Under the pieces are notes generated by a model, which worked only from the letters and a program-made list of their open reading frames with translations, was not told the DNA's origin and searched no databases. Shown piece after piece: positions 20,280 through 64,000 of a stretch of DNA of 64,000 bases. The stretch's first letter is position 1; each line of letters opens with the position of its first letter. This DNA is from Camelus dromedarius (Eukaryota), in NCBI RefSeq assembly GCF_036321535.1, contig NC_087436.1, positions 35,838,001-35,902,000 of the forward strand. The letters run 5' to 3'. Both the position numbers and the translations under genes were made by a program.

Positions 20280-20920
20280 GAGCTCAGTAGCATCAAAGAG
20301 TAGATCCTTGAGGAATGAGTTTGAAAGGAATGTGAGAACGCAGGGATGGCGGATGGGCAGGGAGGCTCTCCATGTGGAGGAGCGCTCCCGAGCAAGGCAC
20401 ACGGCGGGCCGCTGTAATCAGAGACTTAGAAGTGGTCTCCCAGGACTGGATGCTTTTCAAACTGCTCCTTACAGCCTCCAGATTCTCCTCAAATGTCTCA
20501 GGAACTGAGGAAGGATGAGAAGGAAAAGGCTAAGAGTATAGGGAAAGAAGGGATCCAAGGAGCAGAACTTGGGGAGCACTTCAGCTTAGCGTGATACTAG
20601 CAGAGTTTGTAAAAGATGGGAAGAAGGAGAGGAAGACAACGGTCCAAGTGAAAGCTGGGAGAGGGTTTCAGGAAGGGGGTAGGAATTCCAGCAGGAGGGG
20701 CAGAAAGGCCGGGGAAGCGGAGGATGCACTGAAGATGAGGAAGCAGTGTTGCTACCAGCTCGGCTGTGCGGGGGGAGCAAGAGGCCAGGCTGCCCGGGTT
20801 TGAGAGGTGAAGGAGGAGGGAGGAAGTGGAGGCGGTAGGTGCGCCAGACTTTTAAGAACTGTGGTGGTAAAAAGGAGACAGGTTGTAACCTAAGAGTAAC
20901 AGTGATCTAAGGGAGGTTTA
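20280..20920 (-). mobile_element. L2 LINE fragment
   Basis: Purine-rich degenerate sequence resembling antisense L2 (gaggaagtggaggcgg...aagggaggttt). Confidence 0.5.
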
Positions 20921-23312
20921 GAAAGGCATACACTATCCAAAAGTGGATGTAAAGCAAGAAATGGTATTTCCAGAGTTAATTTTTAATTTCCTGAGTTCAC
21001 TGCTGTAAGAATTTCAGACCAGTTTGGCATTCATATCCTGGCACGCTTGTGAAGTTAATTGTGGAGATAAATGCAGTAGCAGCTCAGACAGAAACCAAAA
21101 ATCCTCTGTAAAATTACTGGAATGGTTATCTTAAGTTCTCAAACTCCCAACTCCCTGACAATTTCAACTCTAACATAATGGTTAGAGGTCTTTCCTCCAG
21201 TGGGTAAAGACAGGTGCCCCCAAATGTAGCAAAAACAAGTTTGTTGAACGAACACTAGCACACAGAAAGCCTATCAACAATATAGTAATGATCATTCAAA
21301 AATTTCAGATCTCCATTGTCAAATAAGTTTCCTTTGTATTCACGCTTTATTTGCTTTACCTTAAGTCACCCCCCAATCATGCTGACATCTACTACTGATG
21401 ATTATATTAGACCTAAAAGTGTTCTTAAACAAATGAAGAATACTGACTTCCATTCCTGAAAGTCCTGCTTCCAATTTTCAGGAGGAAATTAAATAATGTA
21501 TAAATCAAATACTGGGCCTAGGCCCAGACAGCTGAACATCGTTTTGTCCTTTCAAGGCAAAGAGGAAGTGTCTGCTATGGCAGGGACACGCCAAGAGAAA
21601 TAAAGCTTAACCTCAGCCCCATGTGAAAGTGATTTTAGATAATCGGGGGTGTCTACAAATAGGTTAAAAATGGGACCACATACTAACAGGGAACTTTCCA
21701 TGGAAGTTAAAAAATGTATCAAGATCTATCCCCACCTTAAAATCAAAGTATGTTTGGAAAATGGTATGGCCTGAGAAATTCTATATCAAGGCAGTAGAGG
21801 AAAGGGAAAGCAGACAGGGAGGAGAGAGTTGACAAGCCAAAGGGAAATTAAAACGTGTTTCCGCTTACCATTTACTGTAGGCTCACAGCTTGATTTCTTT
21901 GTAATTGCTGTTGCCAAAATTAAAATGATATATGTGAAGAGGAAGAGAAGGGGGTGTGGGGGGAGGGAGGAAGAGAGCCAGAGAGAGAATATGAATCTAA
22001 GTGTGTAGGTAGAGTGGCAGATGGTGGAAAAATTACTTAGATCGAGGGCCAGCAAATTTATCCTGTCAAGGGCCGTAGAGCAAATATTTCAGGCTTTGTG
22101 GGGAACACAGTCCCTCCAGTAGCTACTCAAATACCCTTGTCGTGTGGAAGCAGCCACGGGCAGCGTGTAAATGAATGAGCTGCGGCTGCGAGCCAACGCA
22201 GCTTTACAGACACTGAAATGAGAACGTCATGTATTTTTCCCTTCTTTTGATTATTCTTCAATCACTTAAAAATACACAGAACTATTCTTAGCTTACAAAA
22301 ACAGACTGTGGGACATAGCTGACCTGCAGACCATCGTCTGCTGACCCCCTGATTTAGATAGAACATTCTTATGAAACTGGGCTTGACTCAAATTGGGGAT
22401 TCTGAGTAATAAAACTGCCATTCTTTTTGTCAGCAGCTGAACAACAAGATGGTAGTAATGGTTGAAAGCATTTATTTGGAAGATACAGTAGATTCTCTCT
22501 AACCCTATGAAAAAAACAAGCATCTCTACTTTTTTTCTGGCAGGATACTGATACAGCTATGAAATCAAAGTTTATATAATAAGAAATTTTGAAGCCAAAT
22601 GCTCTAAAACCATTAATATTCACCATCATTTAGGAATCAAGAATGATATAAAATATTATTCCCTTTATCAGAGTTTAATATTTTACAAACATCCTTTGCA
22701 GCATAATGCTAGTCTGGAATTACACATAAATTTCCATCATCACCTCTATGGAAACCAGAGAGCTGGTGACTAGAAGGATTTGCTGGTGGAACATATGCTA
22801 TACAGATCACATGGTGATAAAAACTTTATGGAGCATCTGATCTAGACTTCCAGAAACAAAGGAAATATAAAAGTGCAGAGCATCTACGTTCATAGTCTTT
22901 GTGAAGCAAAATAATTTTTATACATCAAATGTTCCGTTGGAGAACAAACAGTGATGTTCCCTTTCTGCGTTAAAAGGGAAAATCTTGTAAAACATCCTGG
23001 TAGATGTCTCAATACCTTGATATAGAAAACAGCATTCTTCTCTCTTTCCCTCTCTCTTTCCTTTTTTTGGGGATATTCCCAGTTCTTCTCCTTAGTAATC
23101 TGAACAAATGAGGGAACTGCCCCTCAGTCACGCCAACCCTTCATAAGCTGGTCCCGGTGCCCTGGACCTCTGGCCACAGGAGTAGCTGCAGGACCCAGCT
23201 GGTCAAGACAGGTTGTATCCTAAGGGTAACAACGATTCAAGGAAGGTTTAAAAAGGAATATACTATCCAAAAATGGCTGTAAAACATGATTATTTCCAGA
23301 GGTGTATTTTTA
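20876..23312 (+). repeat. Dispersed ~110-bp direct repeat (20876-20985 and 23206-23312)
   Basis: 68 of the first 81 positions are identical without gaps in a manual alignment, and both copies share tatttccagag further on. Confidence 0.85.
22043..22351 (+). mobile_element. MER58B-like hAT-Charlie DNA transposon with 8-bp TSD
   Basis: Ends cgagggccagcaaa ... tgctgaccccctg. TSD acttagat (22035-22042) / atttagat (22352-22359). Confidence 0.8.
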
Positions 23313-27929: not shown

Positions 27930-28255
27930 TGACTTTTGTGTGCCACTGCCCCGTTGCCCCCCACTAATTAGTTCAGGGGCAGACACATGACTCAGAAAGG
28001 GCCAATCAGATTCTTTCTCCAGGAACTTTGGGACTGAGACACACAAAGAAGAGTTGCTGGTAGCTGATGGACATTCACGGCTGCAGAGTAGTTACAACTC
28101 CTGTTGTTGAGAATTGTGGAGTCCTCCTTGCTCCTGACCTTACAAAGTCTTATTCCTTAAATACTGTGAGATCACAGTCTGTTTTTAAAACATTCTTTAT
28201 TTGTTTTTGCCAAGTTAGTTCTAGCTGTTTTCTCTTACAACAACTAGAAACTTAA
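27930..28255 (+). mobile_element. ERVL-type LTR remnant (LTR16/LTR33-like)
   Basis: cacatgactcagaaagggccaatcagattct...gccaagttagttctagctgttttctcttacaac. Confidence 0.45.
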
Positions 28256-29109
28256 ATACTATATTATATTTGCCGATACAGATATAGCCATTTGCCTAGT
28301 CATCAGGTTGAAAACATTAGTCAGTTTCGATGCTTGACTTTAAGTCCTTTTTATTCATCAATTACTAACTACTGTAATTGTCATTTATTTTCATTGCTTT
28401 CTTTTTTCATTTGCTATGTCTTCTTTCTACTTTCTACTGCTCTCACTGTGTAATAGTTTTCTGACTAGTTATCTTGTTCCCAGATTAAATTTCCTAAATC
28501 ATAGCTCTGATATCACTTCAAAACTCTCCAAAAGTTCATTGCTGCTTACCTATTAAATGACAAGCTTCCAGCCATGAATGTATTCTAGGTTCCCTACAAT
28601 ATAATCCTCATCCACTTTTAGACCCTTACCTTCAAACACTACTCAACACAGCCCATTTCTCAGTGTATATCCAGGCTTGAGATGCATCCTTCTCTAACTC
28701 TCTGTCTGCCTAAAATGCATTCTCTTTCACAGTCTCCTTACAAAATTATACTTATCTTTTAAAGGCCCATCAAAATGTTAACTCTTATGTAAAGACTTTC
28801 TGATCTTCTCCCACTGGATGTGTTACTTCCTTCAAAATTTCACTGCATTTATTTCCCTTTCTGGACTTCCTAAAGGGCTCTCATAGTTTTCTTCACCATT
28901 TATGCTGAAACTTCTGTTCCTTCAGAGAGGGTTAGACTTCATCCTGGAAACTTCAGGAGGCAAGCTGAATTTTTCCATGGGTTACCCATGATAAACTAAG
29001 AGGTTCTGCCACCTTGAGGTTTTGACTGGTTTGCTATGTTTTGGTCAAGGTACTTCAACTCATCTTAGAAATATATGAAGATAATGTGAAGCAGGTCCAT
29101 AATATGGTA

Positions 29110-29634
29110 GCATTTTTTTCCTTCTGTTCTTCTTCAAATCAAAATTTATTTTTCTAAATTAAAGTAATACAAGCATATGGTGAAAATAAATAAAGAATTG
29201 GTTACCAAAAAAAAAGCAATAGCCCCTTGCTCTCCCCCATTCTACTCCCCAGACTAACAATTTCTAACACTTAAAAAAAAATTCTTCCGGTCGTTGGTTA
29301 TCTTTAAATCTTGATTTATCAACTTCAGACATCACCTATTGATGTTTTATTATGATACATGTATGTTTAGCTTATTTATGCCTCCACTTTCCTTTTTTAC
29401 TTTGTAACATTAAACAACATACTTTAACCTCTACTTCTTGTTCCATTGACTACAGACAGTATACATCTTGATTCCATACTTTGCAAGATTAGGATATTAA
29501 TGTCATTTTCTTCAATGTACTCCTCTGTTCCCTTCTTCTTCTCTATTTTATTATTGTTGGTTTGATAAATTTTACCTTCTGTTCTGTAACCATAATTGAA
29601 CTTTGTCTATGGACTGATTCTAAAGTTGAAAATC
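29110..29634 (-). mobile_element. Ancient L1ME-like fragment, left part (resumes at ~37170-37620 after the young L1 insertion)
   Basis: T-rich degenerate antisense L1-like sequence on both flanks. The reconstructed empty site reads ttctaaagttgaaaatcaataaag. Confidence 0.5.
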
Positions 29635-31320
29635 GGGAGAAGATGGCGGAGTAGAAGGACGCTCGCAGGTCACCCTCTCCCACAAATACACCAAGACCCA
29701 CATCTACAGACCCACTCAGCCAACCAGAGCACCTGTGGAACTCTGACAGAACATCGCCCTCTTCAAAAGATAAAGACGCCAAAAATCTGGTAGGAGAAAA
29801 GGAAAAAAGAAAGAACAAAAGGCAAAGCAGTGCAGGACGGGTCCCGCGGGGAGGGAGCGGCAAAGGAGGACTGGCGCTCGCTCGCTGGGTCTCCCCTCTC
29901 CAACTGAGAGGCCAGCGGGACGGAGGGGGAGCCTCCGAGGCTCGGATCTGTACAGAGCAGCCCTTGACTAACAGAACTAAGTTAAACGGGCACAGAGCGT
30001 CCCCCCGACACCCAGCCTGAGACGCGGGCCGGCAGCGGCGGGCAGGGCCAGGCTGCACAAGCTGAGCAGAGGACGGAAGCGGCTGCACGGAGGCAGCCCC
30101 GGGGGAACGCAAGGGGCTACGCGCCGTGGCTGTGGGTGCACAGGGCAGAACAACCTGGGCCCTCCATAAAACAGCAAGGTTGATGTGCTCTTGGGGGAAG
30201 GGTGCACACCCCCATCTCTGAAAACCCGCGGAAAGTTTTCGGGGGAAGAGAGGTGGGGCTCAGAAACAGCCGCCATATCCTCCGCGCTGAGCACCCAGGC
30301 GGGGGGGGGGGGGGGGGGGGGGCGAAACCTGCATCCGCACGGAAGGGCTTAGCAGCCTCAAAGGCCAGACTGAGACTGGCCTGCAGCCCGGGGCAGATAG
30401 GATCCTTCCATCCTGGTCTCTCAGAGAACTTGCTCCACAAAGACAAGCAAGGAGCTGGGTTTAGGCTCGGAGCAGGGACAGGGCTGTCCCTCGGTCTTCC
30501 CCGAGCCCACCCGCGGAGCGCCGACCAGGGCGGAGCGCGAAGCTGCACAGAGAGCGGAGCTACCGGCGGTGCAGGTAGAGGGAGAGCGCCCCCCCCACCC
30601 CCGCCTTTGGGGCAGGAACACAGCCCCTGACCGAGGTGCTGGGAGGGGGCACGACCCGCCCTCCTACCTGGCCAGTCTGCAACATCTGACTGCGGCATCC
30701 GGAGGGGCAGCGACCCGCCCGCCCACAGCAGAGAGCTGCACCTGACCCAGTGTTAGGAGGAGGCGCGATCTGCTTGCCGACAGGTGCTGGGAGCAGCACA
30801 GAAGAGGGCGCCAACGGAGGGCCTCTGAAAACAGCAAGCTGAGCTTCCAAAACAGGACGAAGACAGAAAGACTTCACATTAAAAACACACAGACTCCAGG
30901 AGAACACCGACAAACCCCTCCCCCCTTTTTTTTTAAATCTGTTTTTACCTGTTCTATTTTCTATTACTCTCTTAATTTTTACTCCTTAATTCATTTCTAT
31001 TTCTCTTGGATTTTGATGTCCTGCTATTGATTAGACACAGGTTTCAAATACATCTATTCATCTCCCCCCCCCTTTTTTTGTAAAGGTTTTAAAAGGACGT
31101 CTCAACCCGATTAATACTCTGCTTCAACTCACTCTTCTATTATTCATTATACACTGTTTTCAAACCCTCTTTCTCCCTTCTTTTAAAATTCTTTCTCTCT
31201 CTCTCTTATTTTTTTTTCTTTTTTTCCTAAGTTCTATTCCTAAATAGGCATTAGATAGATAAAATCCTTAAGGACCAAAATAAACAACTGATACTCCATA
31301 AACCACAGTACAAGAGAGGT
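29635..31320 (+). promoter_or_regulatory. L1 5' UTR internal promoter, CpG-island-like, with YY1 motif
   Basis: AAGATGGCGG (YY1 consensus) at 29640-29649 at the element start. High GC/CpG to ~30860, G22 run at 30301-30322, then a pyrimidine/AT-rich segment before the ORF1 ATG. Confidence 0.8.
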
Positions 31321-32221
31321 ATGAGCAAGATGAAGAAGCAGAAAAACATTTCCCAATTAAAAGAACAAGAGAAATCCCCTGAAAGAAAGATCAACGAAAT
31401 AGACATCGATAGCCTACTAGATCAAGATTTCGAAAAAGGAGTGATCGAATTGCTGAAGGAATTAAAAGAGATAGTGTTTAGAGATATAAAATATGTCAAA
31501 AATGAAATTGAAGCTATAAAGAGCCAAGTAGAATGGGCAAACTCATTGACAGAGATGAGGAATGATCTAATAGCTGTGCAAAGCCGACTAGATAATGCAG
31601 AGGGACGAATTAGTGATCTAGAAGACAGGGCAATAGAAAGCACCCATTCAGAAGAACTACAAGATAAGCAAATAAAAAATAATGAAAATAGCATAAGGGA
31701 CCTATGGGATAATATAAAGCATCCCAATCTTCGCATAATAGGGGTCCCAGAAGGAGAAGAAAGATCAAAGGGGATTGAAAAGGTTTTTGAAGAAATCATG
31801 ACTGAAAACTTCCCAAACTTAAAGAAGGAATCAGATATCCAAGTACAGGAAGCTCAGAGGGTCCCAAACACGAAGAACCCAAATAGACCCACACCAAGAC
31901 GTATCATAATCAAGATGGCCAGAGTCAAGGATAAAGAAATGATTCTAAAGGCAGCAAGAGAAAAGCAAAGAGTAAGTTACAAGGGAACCTCCATCAGGCT
32001 CTCAGCTGATTTCTCTACACAAACACTACAGGCCAGAAGGGAGTGGCAAGATATATTCAAAGCCCTGAATGAAAAAAAGATGCAGCCTAGGATCCTTTAT
32101 CCAGCAAGGCTATCCTTGAGGATAGAAGGAGAAATAAAGAGTTTCACAGACAAAAAAAAAGCTGCAGGAGTTTAGCAACACTAAACCCATGCTAAAAGAA
32201 ATATTGAAAGGGCTATTCTAA
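31321..32221 (+). pseudogene. L1 ORF1p (RNA-binding protein) with a +1 frameshift near the C-terminus
   Basis: Contains NLRIIGVPEGEE, RRIIIKM, ARREW and YPARLS motifs. Removing one A from the A9 run at 32152-32160 restores ...FTDKKKLQEFSNTKPMLKEILKGLF* (TAA at 32219-32221). Confidence 0.92.
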
Positions 32222-32624
32222 ATAGAAAAGCAGCAGGATGCTACAGAAATGAGAAACTCACAACTGGAAAGGTGATAACTCATGAATTACAAATAAAGTA
32301 AACATGAAATTATAAAAGAAGACATACAAATTACTGAGAGTGGGAGAGGGAGGCAGGGAAATATAGAATATTTTTTTCTTTCTTTTTTAAATTTTTTTAA
32401 CAGTAGGATGGGTTTGAGATCATGTTACTATCAGTTTAATAAAACAGTTATAGTAATGGGTTGATAGATTTACAAAAAAGGGTAACCACAAGCCAAAAAT
32501 TTACAAAGGAGTCACAAAAATTAAATAAAATCCATGATAATACAAAGGAAAATTACCAAACCACAAAAGGAAGAAGAAAGGAACAAAGAGGATATACCAA
32601 TTCAACTGCAAAGATAAATTCAAA

Positions 32625-35600
32625 ATGGCAATAAACACACATCTATCATTAATTACTGTAAATGTTAATGGACTAAATGCTCCAGTCAAAAGACATAGAG
32701 TGGCAGACTGGATAATAAAGCAAGAACCTTCAATATGCTGCATACAAGAGACCCACTTTAGGGAGAAGGACACATATAGATTGAGAGTGAAAGGATGGAA
32801 AAGGATATTCCATGCAAATGGAAAAGCCAAAAAAGCAGGTGTTGCAGTACTGATTTCAGACAAAATAGACTTTAAAACAAAGGCCATAAAGAAAGATAAA
32901 GGACATTTTATAATGATTAAAGGAGTGATACAAGATGAGGATATTACATTCGTTAATATATATGCACCCAATATAAGAGCACCTAAGTACATACAAGAAT
33001 TACTAACAGAGATAAAGGGGGATATTGATGGGAATACAATCATAGTTGGAGATTTTAACACTGCATTAACATCACTAGACAGATCTTCCAGACAAAAAAT
33101 AAACAAGGCAACAGAGAAATTAAATACTACAATAGAAAAACTAGATTTGGTGGATATTTTCAGAACATTACACCCCCAAAAAATAGGATATACATTCTTT
33201 TCAAGTGCACATGGAACATTTTCCAGGATCGATCATGTACTTGGGCACAAAAGAAACCTCAACAATTTTAAGAAGATAGAAATTATCTCAAGCATCTTTA
33301 CTGACCACTATGCCATGAAACTGGAAATCAACAACAGAGAAACAAAGGAGAAAAAAAGGAAAGCATGGAGATTAAACAATATGTTGTTGAAAAAACAATG
33401 GGTCAATGAGGAAATCAAAGCTGAAATTAAAAAATACCTTGAGACAAATGATAATGAAAGCACAACCACTCAAAACCTATGGGACACAGCAAAGGCAGTG
33501 CTAAGAGGGAAGTTTATAGCGATACAGGCCTTCCTCAAAAAAGAAGAACAATCTCAAATAAACAATTTAACCCACCACCTGAATGAATTAGAAAAAGAAG
33601 AACAAAAAGCCCCAAAAAGCAGCAGAAGGAAGGAAATAATAAAGATCAGAGAGGAATTAAATACAATAGAGATTAACAAGACCATAGAAAAAAATCAACC
33701 AAACCAAAAGCTGGTTTTTTGAAAAAGTAAATAAAATCGACAAACCTCTGGCCAAACTCACAAAGAAGAAAAAAGAGAGAGCACAAATTAGCAAAATAAG
33801 AAAGAAAAATGTAGAAATTACAACAAACAAAATAGAAATACAGAATATCATACGAGAATATTATGAAAAACTATATGGAACCAAACTGGATAACCTAGAG
33901 GAGATGGACAAGTTTCTGGAAACATACTGTCCACCAAAACTGAATCAAGAAGAATGTGAACACTTGAACAATCCGATCACTAGAAAGGAAATAGAAATAG
34001 CAATTAAAAACCTCCCTACAAATAAAAGTCCAGGACCAGACGGCTTCACCGGGGAATTCTACCCAACATACAAAGAAGAACTCATACCAGTCCTTCTCAA
34101 ACTCTTCCAGACGATTGAAAAGGAGGGAATACTCCCAAACTCATTCTATGAAGCCACCATCACCCTGATACCAAAACCAGGCAAAGTCACCACAAAAAAA
34201 GAGAATTATAGGCCAATATCACTGATGAACATAGACGCCAAAATCCTCACCAAAATTTTAGCAAATAGAATCCAACAACACATAAAAAAGATTATACATC
34301 ATGACCAAGTGGGGTTCATCCCAGGGACACAAGGATGGTTCAACATACGCAAATCAATCAATGTAATACATCACATCAACAAGAGAAAGGACAAAAACCA
34401 CATGATCATCTCAATCGATGCAGAAAAAGCATTTGATAAAATTCAACACCCATTTATGATAAAAACTCTCGCCAAAGTGGGTATAGAGGGAACATATCTC
34501 AACATAATAAAAGCTATATATGACAAACCTACAGCCAGCATAGTACTCAACGGTGAAAAACTCAAAAGCTTCCCACTAAAATCTGGGACAAGACAAGGCT
34601 GTCCACTATCACCACTCCTATTCAACATAGTCCTGGAAGTCCTAGCCACAGCAGTCAGGCAAGAGAAAGAAATAAAAGGGATCCAAATTGGAAAAGAAGA
34701 GGTAAAAGTGTCATTATATGCTGATGACATGTTACTATATATAGAAAACCCTAAAAGGTCCACACAAAAGCTACTAGAGCTGATTGAAGAATTCAGCAAG
34801 GTAGCAGGTTACAAAATTAACGTTCAAAAATCAGTTGCATTTCTTTACACTAACGATAAATCAACAGAAGAAGAAAGTAAAGAAACAATCCCCTTTAAAA
34901 TAGCACCCAAAGTAATAAAATATCTGGGAATAAATCTAACCAAGGAGGTGAAAGAATTATACACAGAAAACTATAAACCAGTGATGAAGGAAATTAAAGA
35001 AGACTTTAAAAAATGGAAAGATATTCCATGCTCTTGGATTGGAAAAATCAATATTGTTAAAATGGTCGCACTGCCCAAGGCAATCTACAGATTTAATGCA
35101 ATCCCTATAAAATTACCCAGGACATATTTCACAGAACTAGAAAAGATCATAATAAAATTCATATGGAACCATCAAAGACCTAGAATTGCCAAAGCATTAC
35201 TGAAGAGAAAGAAAGAGGCTGGAGGAATAACTCTCCCAGACTTCAGACAATACTATAGAGCTACAGTCATCAAAACAGCATGGTATTGGTACCTAAACAG
35301 ACATATAGACCAATGGAACAGAATAGAGAGCCCAGAAATGAACCCATAAACTTTTGGTCAACTGATCTTCGACAAAGGAGGCAAGAATATACAATGGAAT
35401 AAGGACAGTCTCTTCAGCAAATGGTGTTGGGAAAAGTGGACAGCAGCATGTACAGCAATGAAGCTAGAACACTCCCTTACACCATATACAAAAATCAACT
35501 CAAAATGGATTAAAGACTTAAACATAAGACAAGATACAATAAACCTCCTAGAGGAAAACATAGGCAAAACATTATCTGACATACATTTAAAAAACTTTCT

Positions 35601-36420
35601 CCTAGAAGAAATAAAAGCAAGAATAAACAAATGGGACCTAATGAAACTTACAAGCTTCTGCACAGCAAAGGAAACCAGAAATAAAACAAGAAGAAAACCT
35701 ACGGAATGGGAGAAAATTTTTGCAAGTGAAACCGACAAAGGCTTGATCTCCAGAATATATAAGCAGCTCATACGACTCAATAAGAAAAAAATAAACAACC
35801 CAATCCAAAAATGGGCAGAAGACCTAGACAAGCAATTCTCCAAGGAAAACATACAAATGATCAAAAAGCACATGAAAAAATGCTCAATATCACTAATTAT
35901 CAGAGAAATGCAAATCAAAACTACAATGAGGTATCACCTCACACCAGTCAGAATGGCCGTCATTCAAAAATCCACAAATGACAAATGCTGGAGAGGCTGT
36001 GGAGAAAGGGGAACCCTCCTACACTGCTGGTTGGAATGCAGTTTGGTGCAGCCACTGTGGAAAACAGTGTGGAGATTCCTCAAAAGACTAGGAATAGACT
36101 TACCATGTGACCCAGGAATCCCACTCCTGGGCTTGTATCCAGAAGGAAATCTACTTCAGGATGACACCTGCACCCCAATGTTCATAGCAGCACTATTTAC
36201 AATAGCCAAAACATGGAAACAGCCTAAATGTCCATCAACAGGTGACTGGATAAAGAAGATGTGGTATATTTATACAATGAAATACTACTCAGCCATAAAA
36301 ACCGACAACATAATGCCATTTGCAGCAACATGGATGCTCCTGGAGAATGTCATTCTAAGTGAAGTAAGCCAGAAAGAGAAAGAAAAATACCATATGAGAT
36401 CGCTCATATGTGGAATCTAA
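32625..36420 (+). pseudogene. L1 ORF2p (endonuclease/reverse transcriptase) with one frameshift and one nonsense codon
   Basis: EN motifs NVNGLN, GDFN, RIDH. RT motifs QGCPLSP and YADD. C-terminal [18 protein letters not shown]. Extra A in the A7 run at 33688-33694 and in-frame TAA at 35347-35349. Corrected length is about 1264 aa. Confidence 0.95.
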
Positions 36421-36743
36421 AAAACAAAAACAAAAACAAACAAACAAAAACAAAGCATAAATAAAGGACAGAAATAGACTCACAGACAGAGAATACAGAC
36501 TTGTGGTTACCAGGGGGGTGGAGGGTGGGAAGGGATAGACTGGGATTTCAAAATTGTAGAATAGACTACACTGTATAGCACAAGGAAATATACACAAAAT
36601 GATATGATAACTCACAGAGAAAAAAATGTGACAATGAATGTGTATATGTCCATGAATAACTGAAAAATTGTGCTGAACACTGGAATTTGACACAACATTG
36701 TAAAATGATTATAAATCAATAAAAAATGTTAAAAAAAAAAAAA

Positions 36744-37156
36744 GAAACAATCCAAGTGTCCATCAACAGATGGGTGGATAAACAAAATGTGGTATACACT
36801 TACAATGATAATTATTTGGCAATAATTTTACAATGTAGCAAAACCTTGAAAACATTATGCTAAATGAAAGAAGCCAGAAATCCAGGACCACGTATTGTAT
36901 AATTCCATGTGCAGAATAGGCAAATCTATAGACAAAAAGTAGATTAGTGGTTGCTTAGGGTGGGGCAGGTAGGGGCTGAGAAGGTACCAGCTAAGGGGTG
37001 AAAGGGGTTCAAGAAGGGGTTCTTTTTAGGGCAATAAAATTTACTGTGGTGGTGATTGCACAACTCTATGAATATACTCAAAACCAATGAACTGTACACT
37101 TCATAGGTGAATTGTATGGCATGTGAATTATCAATAAAATTGATTTTTTTTAAAAA
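36744..37156 (+). mobile_element. Old L1 (L1MB-like) 3' fragment lying inside the young L1's TSD; putative 3'-transduced segment
   Basis: Degenerate L1 ORF2-end and 3' UTR sequence with its own AATAAA (37133-37138) and a short A run, followed directly by the right TSD copy. Confidence 0.8.
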
Positions 37157-37729
37157 AAAGTTGAAAATCAATAAAGTATGTTTAAGTATATTACCTAATG
37201 ATTCTTCCTAACTCAACACATACCTTTAATATTTTTTTCCTTCCTCAAAATTTGGGTTCTTCTGGCATCTCTATCATAATACCTAGTTTATGGAGCCCAC
37301 TCTCCCTTTATCCTGACCCCTGTTTCCTGGAACCCTACATTCTCCTGTTCCTTGTGGATTAACTGTTCTCTAGACCTGCAGCACAGTTCTCATCCTAAGA
37401 CTTTCCATTAGCACTCTTCCTATGTCTTCCTATTTCTTGAATTACTCCTTTGTTCGGCTGGTATACAACCTTAAGTAACTTTGCAAAAAAGAGTACACAT
37501 TGAATCCCTTCTAGGATATTAGAAAATGCCTTTATTCAATCACCGTGTTTTGAAAGTCTGGTTTGGCATATAATGCTAGGTTAAAGATATTTTCCTTGAG
37601 GTTTTGAAGGACATCTTACAGTGTCAGTACCTCTGTCTTCTCCCAACATCCTCTCTGCTCCCCAACATATACTGAAAACATTCAAAGCCATTCTAAACAA
37701 ATAATGGATATCCAAGGAAATTAGGATTT

Positions 37730-37955
37730 AAAGACATAGGCTTTATGGACATACCTGGGTTTAAATCTTGGATCCACCAGCTGTTATCTTTGAGCCTTGA
37801 AAAAGTTACTTTAAGCTACAGTTTCCTCCCATGGAAAATGAATGTACTAAGTTTGTTCCTCATAAGGTTATTGTATTAAATTGGATAACTCATATAAAGT
37901 ACTTATTATTCTGTCTAGCACATAGTAAGTACTCAACAAAACTGTCACAGATATT
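37730..37955 (+). mobile_element. MIR SINE
   Basis: acctgggtttaaatc...cagtttcctcccatggaaaatg...gcacatagtaagtactcaa core. Confidence 0.7.
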
Positions 37956-38310
37956 AACAATATTGTTAATATATGAACTGAGTACTGAATGTATAATGAC
38001 GGCCAATAGAGAATCTGGTGGCTATTTTCCAACAAAAATCACTTATAACCTGTTCAAGTGGAAGTCACTCTGGTCTAGGAGGCTTCTATCTCACATGTCC
38101 TTATAAGCTTCTACAGGTTCTATGTTCCCCTTTTGGTTGTAATTTGTTCCAGCTCTTCTGGGCCATATTCCAGAGAACAAATGAAACTGGTAAGTGGGGG
38201 TCTGATGTGAGATGACTGTAAGCAAAGCAACCCCAAACCAATTTTTATAGCCATTTAGCAGCTGTCTTGGAAACTGAGGGGGAATAACACTGTTAAAAAG
38301 TAACCAGCAT

Positions 38311-39224
38311 AATTCTCCAAGGAAGAAATACAAATGATCAATAGGCACATGAAAAAAATGCTCAGTATCACTAATTATCAGAGAAATGCAAATCAAAACT
38401 ACAATGAGGTATCACCTCACACCAGTCAGAATGGCCGTCATTCAAAAATCCACAAATGACAAATGCTGGAGAGGCTGTGGAGAAAGGGGAACCCTCCTAC
38501 ACTGCTGGTGGGAATGCAGTTTGGTGCAGCCACTGTGGAAAACAGTATGGAGATTCTTCAAAAGAATAGGAACAGACTTACCATATGACCCAGGAATCCC
38601 GCTCCTGGGCATATATCCAGAAGGAACCCTACTTCAAAATGATACCTGCACCCCAATGTTCATAGCAGCACTATTTACAATAGCCAAGACATAGAAACAG
38701 CCTAAATGTCCATCAACAGATGACTGGATAAAGAAGTTGTGGTGGTATATTTATACAATGGAATAGTATTCAGCTATAAAACCCGACAACATAATGCCAT
38801 TTGCAGCAACATGGATGTTCCTGGAGAATGTCATTCTAAGTGAAGTAAGCCAGAAAGAGAAAGAAAAATACTATATGAGATCGCTCATATGTGGAATCTA
38901 AAAATAAATAAATAAATAAATAAAAATAAAACAAAACACAAAACATAAATATAAAACAGACATAGAATACAAACTTGTGGTTGCCAAGGGGCGGGGGGTG
39001 GGAAGGGATAGACTGGGATTTCAAAATGTAGAATAGATAAACAAGATTATACCGTATAGCACAGGGAAATATATACAAGATCTTATGGTAGCTCACAGAG
39101 AAAAAAATGTGACAATGAATTATATATATGTTCATGTATAACTGAAAAATTGTGCTCTACACTGAAATTTGACACAACATTGTAAAATGATTATAAATCA
39201 GTGAAAAATGTTAAAAAAAAAAAA
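38311..39224 (+). mobile_element. 5'-truncated young L1 (~0.9 kb) with 16-18 bp TSD
   Basis: Highly similar to 35834-36743 (ORF2 C-terminus plus 3' UTR) with a poly(A) tail. TSD AAAAAGTAACCAGCATAA at 38295-38312 and 39220-39237, perfect TT/AAAA site. Confidence 0.95.
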
Positions 39225-39966
39225 GTAACCAGCATAAAGGAATGAGGAGTGGAAGTTTATAGGTTTGAGACATAGTTGTGTATAACCAAGTTTTGCAAAT
39301 ACACGGCAAAACCCTAAAGATGGACTTTGTGTGTGTGTGCTAAACTCACAGTGGTATTTTCATTATAGCTATACAAATAAAGAATGAGTTATCTGTCATC
39401 AGTTATCTTTGAAAGCAAAAAGCAAAACATTTTCTAACAGACAGAAGCTCAACAATGTCACCCTGACTACTGGTATTATCTGAGTATCAAGACTAAGTGA
39501 TGAAATTTTGCAGTATCTTCGCTAACTGGTGGAAGCATTTATAAGTTGATAGGAAAGATCATTCTTGCCAATATCTCAAAGGATTTCACTATGTACTATA
39601 ATGCATTACTGTTAATGTCATCGTGATTCTTAGCATATGAAATACTGATTATTTTAACCTTTCAAAATTAGTATAGGTAAATCAGACTGATGTTCCAATA
39701 AGCAAACCAAAATTATCAATATCATTTTGGGCCATGAAAAAAACCACTGTCATATCAAGAAGCACACTCATGGCAGAATTTTAATTGTAGGACCAGAAAG
39801 ACTTCAGTATAAGTTACAAATGGCAAATGAAAGGTTAAATTTATTCAAATGTATGGGCATCATAGTTCCATCAAATGAAATGAGTCTCAAGTACCCAGGG
39901 AACTTTGTTCTCACGAGTGGGTAAGCCAGCTAGAAACAAAGGAAAATAAGAAGACAGCTTAACCAC

Positions 39967-40082
39967 GGGGTGGGTATAGCTTAGTGGCAGGGCACATGCT
40001 TAGCACATATGAGGTCTTGAGTTTAATTCCTAGTATCTCCATTAAAAAAAAAGTTTAAAAAAATTATATAAATATAAAAAAA
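39967..40082 (+). mobile_element. Vic-1-like tRNA-derived SINE
   Basis: ggggtgggtatagcttagtgg head and A-rich tail. Degenerate TSD with exact core cagcttaacc on both sides. Confidence 0.85.
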
Positions 40083-42399: not shown

Positions 42400-44010
42400 T
42401 TTTCTCTGGAACTTCTGTTCAACATCTCCCTGGGCATTCCCTTCCCCACTCTCGTATGTTGCTGCTTGCTTCCTGGACCCCATGTCTTTTCCCTGTTTTT
42501 GGTGGAACACATCCACCATTAGTTTCCTAAAAAGAGGTGCATGGAGATAAATTTGTTTTAGACCTTGCATGTCTGAAATGTATTTATTTCACCTTCACAT
42601 TTGGTTTTACAGTTTGGATATAGAACTCTAGGTTGGAAATTATTTCCCCTCAGAAATCTCCTCTCCCGTGGCGTCTACTGTTGCTGCAGAGAATCGTGCG
42701 GCAATCCAAATTCTTCATCCTTTGTATGTGATGGCTTGGGACCTGACGCTTAGTACAGCATTGCCATCTAGAAACTTATGTTCCTCAATTTGTGGAAAGA
42801 AATTTTGATAGTTTTCTTTCCTCTGATTTGTTTGCTTTTCCTGAGACCCCGTATTAGTCATGTCTCAATTTCTCCAATTCTTGTCTCCTTGTCCTTTTGT
42901 TTTGTTTTCTGGGAGACTTACTTAACTTTTTCTTCCAATGTTTCTACTGCATTTAGCAGTTTACTTTTTTCTTTAATTTGTGTGTAGGGGGAGGAATTAG
43001 ATTTACTTATTTATTTATTTAAATGGAGGTAGTGGGGATTGAACCCAGGACCTCATGCATGCTAACTAAGCATGTGCTCTACCACGGAGCTATACCCTCC
43101 CCTACTGCATTTAAAACTTCTTCTACCTGAACATTTTAAATTTTTAATTAAGGAACAATTAAATGTTCTTTTTTAGAACTCCTGTTGCTTGTTTCATGGT
43201 TGTAGTATCTTTTTCTTATCTCTTTTTTCATCTGCTCCCTCACTATCTCTATTTCCCTGTATTTGTTTTAGAGTGTCTTTCATATTAGAAGCTTTATTCA
43301 AATATTAGTGTTGCCCAGCTTTCCATTCATATTTAGGAATGAGAAACTAAAATTCCACTTGGAAACTCTGAGTGCATGAGTGAAGCTTAACAGCCGGTCA
43401 TGACTTCACTACTGTTACTTCCCTACCTGTAAGTATCTGTAGAGCTGTTTTCTTAGACTAATCTTCAGTTTCTCTAGAGAGCAGAGTTCCAATATTCTGT
43501 CTGGCTGCCAGCACAGCAGGAGCAGAGCAAGGGCAGGGCCTTGGATGTCTCCGCATGAAGTACACAGATCTTCCCTCAATACCCTGTTTCTTGGTTTGAC
43601 ATGTCACCACTCCCCCATCTTCAGATGGAATTGGTATCTTAATGTCCAGAACCTCTTTAGCTCAATTTTTCTGAAAATAAAGCTTCAATTTATTGCTGGG
43701 GGTCATCTCTGGTCTGGTAGGAGCCCGGAAAACAATCTAAGAACCTACCTCCTCTTTGTAAAGACCTACAACAGCCCTTTCCCTTTTTCTACAGCCCTGC
43801 ATTCTAATTCCTTTCCTGAGTCTTGAGTTCTGTTGTGGAAATCAGCTGCTTATTTGTTTCTCTTGCCTACAGGTTTCAGCATTCTCTTAACCTGCTCATT
43901 TATCATCCAGCTTCAACAGTTTTACTTAAATTTTTCATTGGCTGTCATCTTCCTTATTTTCTCTGTCATGCCTGGTTTATACAATTCTTATTCTTTACTT
44001 TCATTTTAGT
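42400..44010 (-). mobile_element. Ancient L1ME-like fragment hosting a SINE
   Basis: gaccttgcatgtctgaaatg and ggatatagaactctaggttggaaattatttccc are antisense ORF1-region signatures. Confidence 0.6.
42956..43102 (-). mobile_element. Vic-1-like tRNA-derived SINE
   Basis: Minus-strand head ggggagggtatagctccgtggtagagc with B-box. TSD ctactgcattta at 42944-42955 and 43102-43113. Confidence 0.9.
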
Positions 44011-57629: not shown

Positions 57630-57794
57630 CTCTGCTCCTGAATATGTATCTGTTTGGAGGATGAGTTCATTCAGATCAACATCATTACTGATTGGCATAG
57701 AGTGAAACTGCAGGTTAAATATTTCCCTTCTTGTTGCTGCATCTGGTAAAGGCACATAGATGATTCTATCAATTCTTCCAGGCCGCAGCAAAGC
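57630..57794 (-). CDS. AFG2A: Penultimate coding exon of AFG2A/SPATA5 (165 nt, second-region-of-homology RPGR motif)
   Basis: Manual translation gives [55 protein letters not shown]. Acceptor is ccatcttctttatag, donor is GAG|gtaagat, phase 0/0. It joins in frame to the terminal exon ([13 protein letters not shown]). Confidence 0.96.
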
Positions 57795-58511
57795 CTATAA
57801 AGAAGATGGAGCAACACAGATGAACCAAGCTCAGAACTGACATTCCACATGGAAGGTACCCAAGGAAAGAGGATGTCCAGAATCTCATGAATAACTATTA
57901 CCCATAATTAGTAAATAAAACCAGTACTAGAGATTCCATAATCTATTTCAGAGGTTCAAACAATGTTAGAGTACTTTTGAAAACAGAAAAGCAGTATTTC
58001 TTAAAGGCTTTTTTTGCTCCTCAGCAACTGTCAGGTCAGTAAAAGATGACTATTCTCTTTTAAGGAAATGTGTACATGGCTTGTATTCATCTTATTAAAA
58101 AGACATTAAAAGACTTTTCTTGGGGTACCTTCCTGCAATAATTCTTAAAATATGGTTAAGCTGTTTCAAGAGCCCCCAAAATAGGCACAGCTCTGATTAA
58201 ACAATACTTCTAGAGCTGATGATAGTCAAATGAATTTCCCTAAAATTTTACTGGAGGTTAATGCCTAAATTATCTTAGAGCTAATGAAGTCATCTCTTCA
58301 GAAAAAATTATTACATATGTATTATATACCAGATATTGTTCCTGGTGCTAGGAACCAGCATGAGTAAGATGGATATGCGTAAAACTGTAGTGACAGTTAC
58401 ACATGTATGTAAGTATACTAGTAATCTCTGAATTGTATAACTTAAGTGGATGAATTTTAGGGTATGTGAATTATATCTCAATAAACCTATTAAAAGAGAT
58501 ATAGGTCTAAA

Positions 58512-58552: not shown

Positions 58553-59729
58553 GAGGGAATGGGGCAGCTTTTAGTTGGGATGATGAGAGAAAGCCTCTCT
58601 AAGGAGGTAGCTTATGCAGATATCCAAAGGAGTCACCATACAAAGATCTACGGGAAGAGCATTCAAAGTACAGGGAACATCAGGTGCAAAGGCAACAATG
58701 ACTGGTATGAGCTAGGGAAAGAAAATAACCCAATAAAGTGAGAAAACGTAGGAAATGAGGTTAGAGAGATAGTCATAGGGAGGTTATAAGGCCTTAAACA
58801 ACATGGTAAAGAGTCTGGATTATATTCTAATTGCAGTGAGAAGCCAGTGGAAGGTTTTAAGTGGGAAGGTGAAATGGTGAAATATACACAAAAAGATCAC
58901 TCTTTTGGGACAAAATCAAAAGGTCTAACATATGTGTAATTAGAGTCCAAGAAGGAAAGAAAAGAGAAGATGGGGTAGAAAAAAATATTAGGAAAAAAAA
59001 AGCCAAAAATGCTCCCAAATTAGTTAAAAAAAAATTAAGTCACAAAATCAAGCTCAGTAAATTTCCCACAAAATAAATACAAAGAAAACCACATAAGAAC
59101 ACATTGTAGTCAAACTGCTGAAAACCAAAGATAAAGAAAATCTTAAAAGCTGCGAGAGTGAATACAGGGAACAATGATTTGAATCACCAATGACTTTTAA
59201 CCAAAACAACAGAGTGCGAAAACCAGAACAACATCTTTCAAGTGCTGAAAGAATAAAAATGTCATTCCAGAATTTTATTCCCAGAGAAAATACTCTTCAA
59301 TAATCAAGGAAAAATAAGGTCACTTTCAGATAAAAGAAAACTAAGGAAATCTGTTTCCAGCAGATCTACACTACAGAAAATGCTAAAGGAAGTTCTCCTG
59401 GTTGAAAGGAAATGACATGAAATGGAAAACTGAATTTCTAGGAAGAAATAAAGTACTGAAAATGAAATTCCCAAAAATGTAGACTCCTTCCCTCTCCCAG
59501 AAGTTACTCTACTTGCTGGCATAATCAGAAGTAGCACTTCTTGAATACTTAAGAGATACACACTTATAAATAGTGAAAAATAGCACATTTCCCTATGTGT
59601 ACTTATGAATATGAAGTATCCAGAAAGAAGGTGGGATAGAAGTAAATACAGAAAAGTAAGGAAGACAAGAACTTAGGCATGAACACCTTTAATTATAAAA
59701 CCTGAAACAAACAAACAAACAAAAATCCT

Positions 59730-59980
59730 GAAAATGTAGCTGGGACTATACCTAAGACACTACAGAAAATACAAATACTGAAACCTCATATGGTTGCTCT
59801 GTGGGAATTAGTTCTTAGGAAACTGGCACAAAAAATGATAATACTCTGTGAGTAATAAACTGTCCTCTGTCTCTGACTCAAGAGTCTCATGCCTTTCACC
59901 AGCTTCCATGAAAATTGTGGCAGGCTAACTAGTTACCGTTCAAATAGGGTAAAGCCTCAGAACCTTCATATTTCTTGACA
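59730..59980 (+). mobile_element. ERV1 LTR 3' fragment (MER34-like); left boundary uncertain
   Basis: AATAAA followed by gtctctgactcaagagtctc...gtggcaggctaact...ttcttgaca, ending in the LTR CA terminus. Confidence 0.55.
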
Positions 59981-60566
59981 TGTATGTTACTCATAATGGA
60001 AACTCAAAATATAAAGCAAATATTGCCAGGACTAAAAGAGATAAACATATAACTCTAAAATTGTAATAGGATTTTTTAACATTCCTCTTTTAGCAACTAA
60101 GAGAACTAGAAAACACACCAGTAGAGAGGATCCAACAAGACTATCAATCATCTTGACCTAATTGCTATTTATTTATAGACCACTACATCCAACAGCTGTG
60201 CAACACATATTCTTTTTAAGTGCACTTGGTATATTCACCCATATGATAATCCATAAAACAAAACTCAGCAAATTCATAAGTACTGAAATCACACAAAGTG
60301 GAGCTCTGACTGTAAGAGGGAGTTAGACACGAATAAAAATAAGACATACAAGAAAACCCCAAACATATGGAAATTAAATAACATACTTCTAAATAAGTCA
60401 TAGGTCAAAGAAGAAATCGCAAAGGAAGTTAGAATATTTTTCTAACATATGAAGATTTGTGGAATATTGTTAAAAGTGCTTAGTGACAAATTTGTAACTT
60501 TAAATGCTTATAGCAGGAAAGAAGGCTAAAATCAAAGACCTAAGTTTCAAGAGTATGTACAAGGAA

Positions 60567-61102
60567 TGAAAGTAACCTAAGTGTCCATCAGCAGATGAAC
60601 AAATAAAGATGTGGTATACACAGATACAATGGAATATTACTTAGCCATAAAAGGAAGGAAATACAGCTGCTTGCAGCAACATAGGTGGACCTAGAGATTA
60701 TCACACTAAGAGAAGTAAATCAGAGAGAGAAAGACAAATACTACACGGTATCACTTCTATGTGGAATCTAAAAAATAATACAAATGGCCTTATTTACAAA
60801 ATGGAAATAGACTCACAGACATAGAAGACTAATGGTTATCAAAAGGGAGGGGGGAGGGATACTTAGGAGTTTGAGATTAACAGATACACACTACTACATA
60901 TAAAACAGATAAATAACAAGGACTGACTTATAGCACAGGGAATTATATTGAATATCTTGTAATAACTTATAATGGAAAAGAATCTGAAAATGAATATATA
61001 TGTATAAATGTATATACACACACATATATAAAACTGAATCACTTTGCTGTATACCTGAAACTAACACAACATTGTAAATCAACTCTACTTCAATTAAAAA
61101 AA
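60567..61102 (+). mobile_element. 5'-truncated L1 3' end (cetartiodactyl-age type) nested in the old L1
   Basis: ORF2 end (...tatgtggaatctaa), 3' UTR and A tail. TSD aagagtatgtacaaggaa (60549-60566) / aacagtaagtacaaggaa (61103-61120), 16 of 18 identical. Confidence 0.85.
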
Positions 61103-63257
61103 AACAGTAAGTACAAGGAAGGAAATAATGAACTTGAGAGCATAAATCAATGAAATAGGAAACAAATAATAGAGAAAATCAACAAAGTCAAGGGAGGTTC
61201 TCTACAAAGATTTTTAAGAATTGATTAAATTCTAGCTAGACGAAACAAGAATAAAAGAACAAATCACCAACATCAGAAATCAAAAGGGGCTATCACTACA
61301 GATCCTAAAGATAGCAAAAGGATAATAAGAGAATATTATAAACAACTTTATGACAATAAAAAAGAAACAAATGCCTTGAAAAAGCCAGTTATAAAATGGA
61401 CACAGCATAAAACAGAAAATCACAATAGCCCTTTATTTTTAAAAACTGCAACTGAACTGATTGAAAAACTGAATCATTATGACCAACCTTCCCATCAAGA
61501 AAAATTCAAGCCCAGATGGTTTCCCTTCTGAAATCTACCAAAGAAGCAATCACATCAGAATTATATAACCATCAGAATATAGAGGAGGAAACACTTCTCA
61601 ACTTGTTTCATAAGGCCAGCATAATACTAATTCTAAAACCTGACAAAGATATTACAAAAAATGACAACTACAGATTAGTGACACCCTCATAAGCATACAT
61701 CTAAAAATTCTTTGAAAATATTAGCAAGTAGAATCTAACAATATATAAAATGGATAAATCATCACAATCAAGTAAGAATTATCCCAGGAATGAAAGGTTA
61801 GTTTAACACTCAAAATCCAATGAGTATAATTTAACCATAGCAACAGAATTAAAGGAGAAAATCTGTTCCATCATTTAAATATGTGCAGAAAAAGCATATG
61901 ACAAAATTTAAGATCTAGTCATGATTAAAAAAATCTCTCAACAAACTAGAAATGAAAGGAAACTTCTTCAATACCTACAAAAACCTATAAGTAAAATAAT
62001 AATTAATCTCAAAATTTTGAATGCTTTCTAACCTAAGATCAAGAACAAGGTAAAAACTCACCACTTCTACCAAACATTGTAACAGAGGTACTAGCCTTTG
62101 CAATAAGGCAAAACCAGGGCAGGGGGGATTTGGAGGAAGGAAGTATAGAACTTGCAAGAGTAAAAAGTAAAACTATCCTTATTTGCAGATGACATGATTG
62201 CTTATGTAAAACTCCTAAGGAATCTACAAAACAGCAGCAAGATTACAGGAGACAGGTTTAATATTAGAAAAATTGTATCTTTATATATTCAGCAGCAATC
62301 TAAACAGAAGAATGAAGTTAAAAAATCTACTTTATGGAAATACGTAAAAAACAAACAAAGGAATAAAATTAACAAAAGAATGCTTCATTAAAAACTACAG
62401 AGCACTGTTGAGAGAAATTAAAGATCTATACAGAGATTAACCACATTCATTGGAAGATTCAATATTATTAAGATATTCATTCTTTCCAAATTTATCTACA
62501 GTCTCAATGCAATTCCAATCAAAATTCCACAAAGACTTTAAAAAAAATGACAAACTGATTATAAAATGTATATAGAAATTCAAGTGACTGAGAATTATGA
62601 AAGCAAATCAAAAAAGGAACAAAGTTGAAGGACTTAAACTACTTGGCCTCAAAATTTATAATCTTAAAGAAATAAGACTGTGATAAGTCTAGAAGATAGA
62701 AATACAGATTTAAAAAACAGAATAAAGAGTCCTTATTGATTTTTATTTTTAAGGTATTCAATGAGGAAAGTAAAGTACTTTAAGAAATGATGCTTCAACA
62801 ATGGAATATCATATTTTAAAAATGAACATTGACCCTTCCCTCACCCCATTCTCAAAAATCAACTTGAGATGGATCATAAATCTCAATGTAAGAGTTCAAA
62901 CTATAAACTTCTAGAGGGAGTATAAGAGAAAAAAACTGATAAACCTGTCTTTTAAAAATTAAACCATTTTTCTCTTCTAAAAACTTCAAGGAAAAAAAGC
63001 AAGCCACAGACTGGGATAAAATACTCACAATGGGCAGGTATATTTGACAAAGAACTTGTATCCAAACACATAAAGACCCCCTAAAATTCAATGGTAAGAA
63101 AATAAACAACCCAGAAGAAAACAGGCAAAAGATCTGAACAGATCCAGACAAAGGAAACTATAAAGTTGGCAAGTAAGTAAATGTTGAGTAAAAAGATACT
63201 CAACATCATTGGCCATCAGATCAATGCAAATTTAAACCACAGTGAGATGTCATTATA

Positions 63258-63405
63258 GGGGAGGAGGGGATAGCTCAGTGGTAGAGCGCATGCCTAGTAT
63301 GCATGAGGCCCTGGATTCAATCCTCAGTACCTTCATATAAGCAAACAAACAAACCTAATTGACCCCAGCCCCCCAAAAATCCCCCACAAAAAACAAAAAA
63401 GAAAA
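63258..63405 (+). mobile_element. Vic-1-like tRNA-derived SINE nested in old L1
   Basis: tagctcagtggtagagc A-box, B-box and A-rich tail. Degenerate TSD gagatgtcatta / gaggtatcatta. Confidence 0.88.
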
Positions 63406-64000
63406 GAGGTATCATTACATTCTCATAAGAATGACTAAAATTAAAGACACCAACAATAACAAAGACTGAACAAGGATTATAGAGTAACTAGAACTTATAC
63501 ACTGTTAATGGGAACATAAAATAGTACAATCAGTTTTCCAAAGTGGTTGAGTGGTTAAGAGACTGACAGTTTCTTAAAACGTTTAACATTCTCCACTACA
63601 ACAATCCAGTTATTCTACTCCTAGGTATTTATCTAAGAGAAACAAATACATAATCCATGCAGACTTATACATAGATGTTCATGGCAGCTTTATTCAAAAT
63701 AGCTCCAAACTGTAAATAATCCAAATGTCTACCAATTCATGAATGGATAGACAAAATACGTATTTACATATAATAGAGTATCACTTGGCAATTAAAAAAG
63801 AACTATTGATATACTCAATAACATGCATAAGTCTCAAACTTCTGTTGAGCTAACGAAACCAAACATTGAAAAGTACATACTATACAATTCCACTTATACA
63901 AAATACTTAAAAAATTTGGTCTAATCTGTAATTATAAAAAGTAGACAAGTGGTTGTTTGGAGTCTGGGGTAGAGGGAAAGATGGATTGCCAAGGAGCAAA

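Follow-up and report, generated by a model that had tools for sequence, protein, structure and literature searches.

A young full-length L1 in the dromedary genome that very probably carries an older L1's decayed 3' end as a 3' transduction

In a 64-kb stretch of the dromedary genome (Camelus dromedarius, contig NC_087436.1, positions 35,838,001 to 35,902,000; the whole stretch is hereafter called the window, and all positions are given in its numbering), a young full-length copy of the retrotransposon L1 is followed, directly after its own A tail, by the degraded 3' end of an L1 that is far older. The question raised by this locus is whether the two arrived together or apart, i.e. whether a single L1 insertion brought the older fragment along as its cargo, or whether two separate insertions came to lie side by side. 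We consider it very probable that the feature is one insertion, a partnered L1 3' transduction. This reading, which had been put forward in an earlier model-made annotation of the same DNA (the original prediction), is well supported, both by the local anatomy and by the mismatch in age between a perfect target-site duplication and a decayed cargo, and none of the defining features of partnered 3' transduction that were tested was found wanting.

The outer boundaries of the insert are set by a 13-bp target-site duplication, with the left copy at 29622..29634 and the right copy, the same sequence, at 37157..37169, both located on the + strand by exact-match search. The 13-mer occurs twice on the + strand of the window and not at all on the - strand, and when 29560-29660 is compared with 36690-37600, no exact match is longer than these 13 nt and the next in length is 8 nt. 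As a control for chance, a match of at least 13 nt within a 1-kb region beginning 7.1 kb downstream was found at 4 of 11,140 positions, which by construction include the insertion site itself. The last base of the left copy directly abuts the L1 5' end, and the insert between the two copies is 7,522 bp long, consisting of 7,109 bp of L1 including its tail and 413 bp of cargo. The neighbouring L1 at 38295-39237 served as an internal control for the ordinary insertion pattern: it is a 5'-truncated element of 0.9 kb (38313-39219) that is oriented like the full-length L1, and its 18-bp duplication occupies 38295-38312 and 39220-39237, the latter directly after the tail. At the first tail of the full-length L1, in contrast, no word of 9-12 nt with its first base in 36725-36769 matched 29535-29640 at up to one mismatch. 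A single duplication thus encloses the L1 together with the extra segment and none encloses the L1 alone, and the claims that the 13-mer recurs perfectly only beyond the fragment, and that the first tail has no duplication, are both borne out.

The carrier has the composition of a full-length mammalian L1. Its 5' untranslated region (UTR; 29635..31320, + strand) is GC-rich and has retained its CpGs, with a GC content of 63% and an observed/expected CpG ratio of 0.58 in 29635-30900, as compared to 0.07-0.09 in the flanks. Its start resembles a complete L1 5' end and bears a YY1-type motif at 29640. The first open reading frame (ORF1; 31321..32221, + strand) encodes the trimerisation, RBD-like and dsRBD-like domains, identified as three L1 Pfam domains, while ORF2 (32625..36420, + strand) encodes the endonuclease (PF03372) and the reverse transcriptase (PF00078); the C-terminal, fourth piece of L1 protein gave no Pfam match. 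The 3' UTR (36421..36730, + strand) has its own AATAAA at 36718-36723 and another at 36460, and ends in an A13 tract (36731..36743, + strand) that is the L1's own, parental tail. The body of an L1 with its own poly(A) signal and an internal A tract, as expected of the carrier of a 3' transduction, is therefore present. Full length and the A13 tail had both been claimed beforehand and were located in all their parts; that earlier account had passed over three breaks in the reading frames. ORF1 has one frame change near an A9 run (32152-32160), and ORF2 has one near an A7 run at about 33690, as well as a premature stop at 35347. As assembled, then, the copy does not have the two intact reading frames of a retrotransposition-competent element, and two of the three breaks fall in or near A runs. 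Two further observations on this element can be added. A run of 22 G at 30301-30322 within the 5' UTR is likely to be a G-quadruplex or a site of unstable length, and the spacer between ORF1 and ORF2 (32222-32624), about 400 bp long and containing a T-rich tract, is presumably longer than that of primate L1s.

What follows the A13 tract is a second, much older L1 end. By sequence comparison, the cargo (36744..37151, + strand) opens with the closing portion of an L1 ORF2, which has undergone a deletion and a change of frame, and continues with a 3' UTR. Its first 150 bp match the C-terminus of the young L1's ORF2 in two frames, and the two are 72% identical (111/155 columns, 6 gap runs). Identity to the old L1 copy at 63713-64000 is 69% (171/248 columns, 12 gap runs), the last 100 bp match the old L1 3' end at 58384-58485 in 70 of 102 columns, and overall the cargo resembles the other old L1 copies of the window at 59-69%. 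The alignment of its 3' UTR to that of the young L1 scored 12, inside the range of 2-16 given by 30 random controls, and the segment is absent after the tail of the neighbouring L1; it is not the carrier's own 3' UTR. The proposed derivation from a diverged L1 3' end agrees with these matches, and the L1MB name attached to it is a putative one, given for its resemblance. Two AATAAA signals are found in the cargo, one at 37033 and the other at 37133..37138 (+ strand); from the second it is 13 nt to the terminal A tract, a distance within the 10-30 nt expected of a poly(A) signal. The tract itself (37152..37156, + strand) consists of five A, or eight if the first three bases of the duplication are counted, and is preceded by a run of eight T. 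The parts of the fragment named in the original prediction, including the position of the second AATAAA, are where it had placed them, but the AATAAA at 37033, the T8 run and the mere five A of the terminal tail had gone unmentioned.

The ages of the two parts decide between one event and two, as far as the window can show. One premature stop in 4,407 coding nt, under a model in which 4.07% of substitutions are expected to be nonsense, gives a decay of ~0.6% for the young L1 (95% interval 0.01-3.1%), an estimate that is crude, as it draws on a single stop, uses a simple model of mutation and may be affected by assembly errors. At a decay of 3%-0.2%, a 13-bp pair stays identical with a probability of 0.45-0.95, whereas at an assumed decay of 15-20% per copy this probability falls to 0.015-0.003. 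The age of the young L1 fits the perfect duplication and that of the old cargo does not. Because the decay of the cargo makes an intact 13-bp pair improbable, the duplication most probably belongs with the insertion of the young L1. This bears directly on the two-event scenario, where the 13-bp duplication would belong to the fragment, an ancient, 5'-truncated resident, whose exact 5' edge the young L1 would later have hit without making a duplication of its own. Such a history could account for a fragment that ends as a natural L1 3' end does, with AATAAA and an A tract like a resident insertion, and for the fact that no second copy of the cargo is seen within the window. It would, however, require that the perfect pair outlasted the decay of the cargo, that the young L1 landed on one exact base, and that it did so with no duplication. 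Moreover, the endonuclease-like site is found where the 13-mer begins, not where it ends. We therefore regard two events as highly improbable. A variant that has the young L1 interrupting an old L1 already in place was also considered and rejected, as the left flank has no upstream ORF2 remnant of the cargo.

The crudeness of the age clock is one of several points that weigh against a single transduction. Another is that no near copy of any 40-mer of the cargo exists elsewhere in the window, the best being 33/40, at the ORF2-like start. The target site, CT/AAAG, has two mismatches to the endonuclease consensus TT/AAAA, to which the site of the neighbouring L1 conforms perfectly. With five A outside the duplication, the terminal tail falls short of the internal A13 and may be a genomic tract of the fossil itself; this weighs little, because the neighbouring L1 also has just 7 A outside its duplication, which weakens the short tail as an argument against transduction. 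Lastly, word searches of sequencing runs have a limited bearing here. The cargo makes up 27% of the stretch that was sampled (36744-38300, i.e. the cargo and the right flank), and the presence of words shows neither adjacency nor copy number. What these searches do show is that the cargo and the right flank are real DNA: 19 of the 23 listed runs contain 0.95 of the 157 sampled words, and at those proportions most of the cargo words must exist in all 19. The 19 runs come from 10 studies, 18 of them from one organism (A) and one from a second (B), and one run may be the source sample of the window itself. The other four are uninformative: one is unindexed, and three, of 25-31 million letters, contain almost none of the words. 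Scans of metagenome contigs gave no match to the left junction and none to a 3' UTR motif common to both young L1s; these blanks are uninformative too, since the absence of a high-copy motif suggests that the collection is without host DNA.

The runs also argue against an artefact, in which the sequence between tail and duplication would be foreign and would have got there through an assembly chimera, or through recombination or gene conversion after the insertion. Two of the three reading-frame breaks fall at A runs, as noted above, and might be sequencing errors, which would be in keeping with an imperfect assembly. Yet a misjoin or a conversion tract is unlikely to end at an AATAAA, 13 nt, an A tract and an exact 13-mer, and with the cargo and flank words present in 19 runs, we give this explanation hardly any credence.

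If a single partnered transduction, an event type reportedly described by Moran in 1999 and by Goodier and Pickeral in 2000, produced this locus, the following pathway can be envisioned. We infer a full-length parent L1 elsewhere in the genome, in sense to the degraded 3' end of a far older L1 and situated either within that end or immediately upstream of it. Transcription would have passed the parent's own AATAAA and tail and run 408 nt into the fossil, past the first AATAAA of the cargo (37033), to stop at the natural end of the fossil. The RNA could have ended by cleavage and polyadenylation after the AATAAA at 37133, as the original prediction has it, or reverse transcription could have been primed on the fossil's own A tract; as both end at the same place, the two options are indistinguishable. 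The 7.5-kb RNA would then have been copied whole by one target-primed reverse-transcription event into the CT/AAAG site, in antisense to the gene AFG2A, with integration creating the 13-bp duplication and the copy later losing its coding capacity.

The same local anatomy would be expected if reverse transcription had started on another RNA, one with the fossil at its end, and had then jumped onto a full-length L1 RNA at its 3' end, or if two such RNAs had been ligated. A template switch has been proposed for one SVA transduction (PMC12593883), and chimeras usually have a full-length 5' partner followed by a truncated L1 3' end (10.1101/2025.02.02.635956). However, the partners in the Alu/L1 chimeras of the latter study were concurrently active, whereas the 3' partner here is long dead, its ORF2 remnant showing a frameshift, a deletion and a divergence of about 30% from that of the young element. 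The SVA case, in turn, was argued from a missing internal A tract, and here the A13 tract is present. Considering also that read-through is far commoner, a template switch or ligation seems very unlikely.

Read-through with a single insertion also agrees with what is known of partnered L1 3' transduction (PMC13009371, PMC9311842, PMC5932605), with which the locus shares the internal A tract, the downstream segment, the signal 10-30 nt before a second A tract and the one enclosing duplication; it differs in that the cargo is all old L1 sequence and the terminal tail is very short. Human L1 3' transductions account for about 25% of somatic insertions, with a poly(A) signal 10-30 nt upstream at 274 of 349 transduction ends (PMC13009371), while the figure for new germline L1 insertions is <10% (PMC9341517). 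Among polymorphic human L1s, 268 of 7,103 have high-confidence transductions, and the range of 7-997 nt, given together with SVA cases (PMC9311842), accommodates the 413 bp of cargo seen here.

The surprise that the original prediction implied in the remobilisation of an ancient repeat is not supported: repeat cargo, including pieces of ancient L1s, is both documented and frequent (PMC12593883, PMC13141329, PMC5174737). Sequence from transposable elements (TEs) is found in 53 of 109 SVA 3' transductions (49%), at the level of the genome background, and five SVA_D insertions share an 87-bp L1M5 fragment that was traced to its source locus (PMC12593883). Our case is similar in its TE-derived cargo; it differs in having an autonomous L1 for a carrier and in that the fossil's own terminal 3' end, in sense, forms the cargo. 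In gibbons, LAVA carries L1ME5 as a fixed module (PMC5174737), and there too a younger element has an ancient, re-mobilised L1 fragment for its 3' part; LAVA, unlike the present insertion, is non-autonomous and multi-copy with its L1ME5 in antisense, while here one copy is known and the cargo is in sense. A further comparison is with the dog, also a non-primate mammal with germline L1 transductions, whose tags are traceable (PMC13141329). The dog loci are dimorphic and mapped to their sources, and ours is known from one assembled copy. Only 3 of the 27 mapped dog sources adjoin an L1, so our model would be compatible with a source copy that has no L1 beside it. That survey required at least 25 bp of unique sequence, which drops about 40% of the eligible transductions and would exclude a cargo class like this one, made up entirely of old L1 sequence. 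A survey of camelid TEs refers to transduction once, in general terms (PMC8605555). Our literature search, judged by titles and the beginnings of abstracts, found no work on camelid L1 transductions and no paper devoted to an L1 transduction ending at the signal of an older L1. We do not claim that such work is absent, since Szak et al. 2003 may hold precedents, and closer ones may be found among the supplementary tables of PMC12593883 and PMC13141329.

The insertion is thus a fresh instance of a known and common type of event. Taken singly it matters little, because it is standard L1 behaviour and a repeat cargo is to be expected from the composition of the genome. In practice it can serve to tag the lineage of an L1 that was recently active, in a genome that has received little study, and it clearly exemplifies a class of transductions that filters for unique sequence drop and that repeat annotation would date as ancient. 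Greater significance would follow only if the tag marks many copies. An extension of the single-insertion reading, not opposed to it, is that the fossil end has become a heritable 3' extension of an L1 sub-lineage, i.e. a transduction family of the type of LAVA or SVA_F1. Precedents for this exist in the fixed L1ME5 module of LAVA, the five SVA_D insertions with the L1M5 piece, and eight dog sources with several offspring each (PMC13141329). In the window, the one other young L1 3' end (38313-39219) is without the cargo, no other copy of the cargo is found in the 64 kb, and nothing positive was seen, so that a family of this kind has a slender chance of being real. There is likewise only a slight chance that a productive L1 sub-lineage has taken the fossil as its functioning 3' end. 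Were that true, many insertions would carry the fossil piece, including 5'-truncated "orphan" ones made of the fossil alone, and insertions of recent date would be mistaken for ancient L1 copies in this genome. The 3' UTR of a dead subfamily would then be back in active retrotransposition, like L1ME5 in LAVA.

The surroundings of the insert offer some further context. The flanks are skewed towards T and C on both sides, opposite to the insert (AT skew -0.27/-0.26, GC skew -0.34/-0.40), which fits a continuous empty site but does not prove it. The T/C-rich flanks extend over 28200-29634 and 37170-37570, and both may belong to one old repeat on the - strand, although a protein match of the flanks to one old element gave nothing better than E 0.25. 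The neighbouring L1 belongs to the same broad family as the full-length one, with 95% identity in the ORF2 end and 86% in the 3' UTR, and its poly(A) signal is mutated. A coding exon of AFG2A (SPATA5) lies at 57630-57794 on the - strand, with 55 codons and AG/GT edges, and its best PDB match is AFG2A (E 4e-32). Since this exon is on the - strand, the L1 is antisense to AFG2A, and it would lie within the intron that follows the exon.

Beyond the exon, 58900-64000 holds a decayed older L1 on the + strand. Remnants of its ORF1 and ORF2 are present, and a further L1 3' fragment, at about 60570-61120, apparently interrupts it. The segments 20876-20959 and 23206-23289 are 83%-identical copies of a stretch of at least 84 bp, spaced 2,330 bp apart, and could be the ends of a long terminal repeat (LTR) element or a local duplication. 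Finally, copies of a tRNA-like short interspersed element (SINE) are found in both orientations at 1029-1083, 39967-40003 and 43026-43102, and presumably resemble the camelid SINE.

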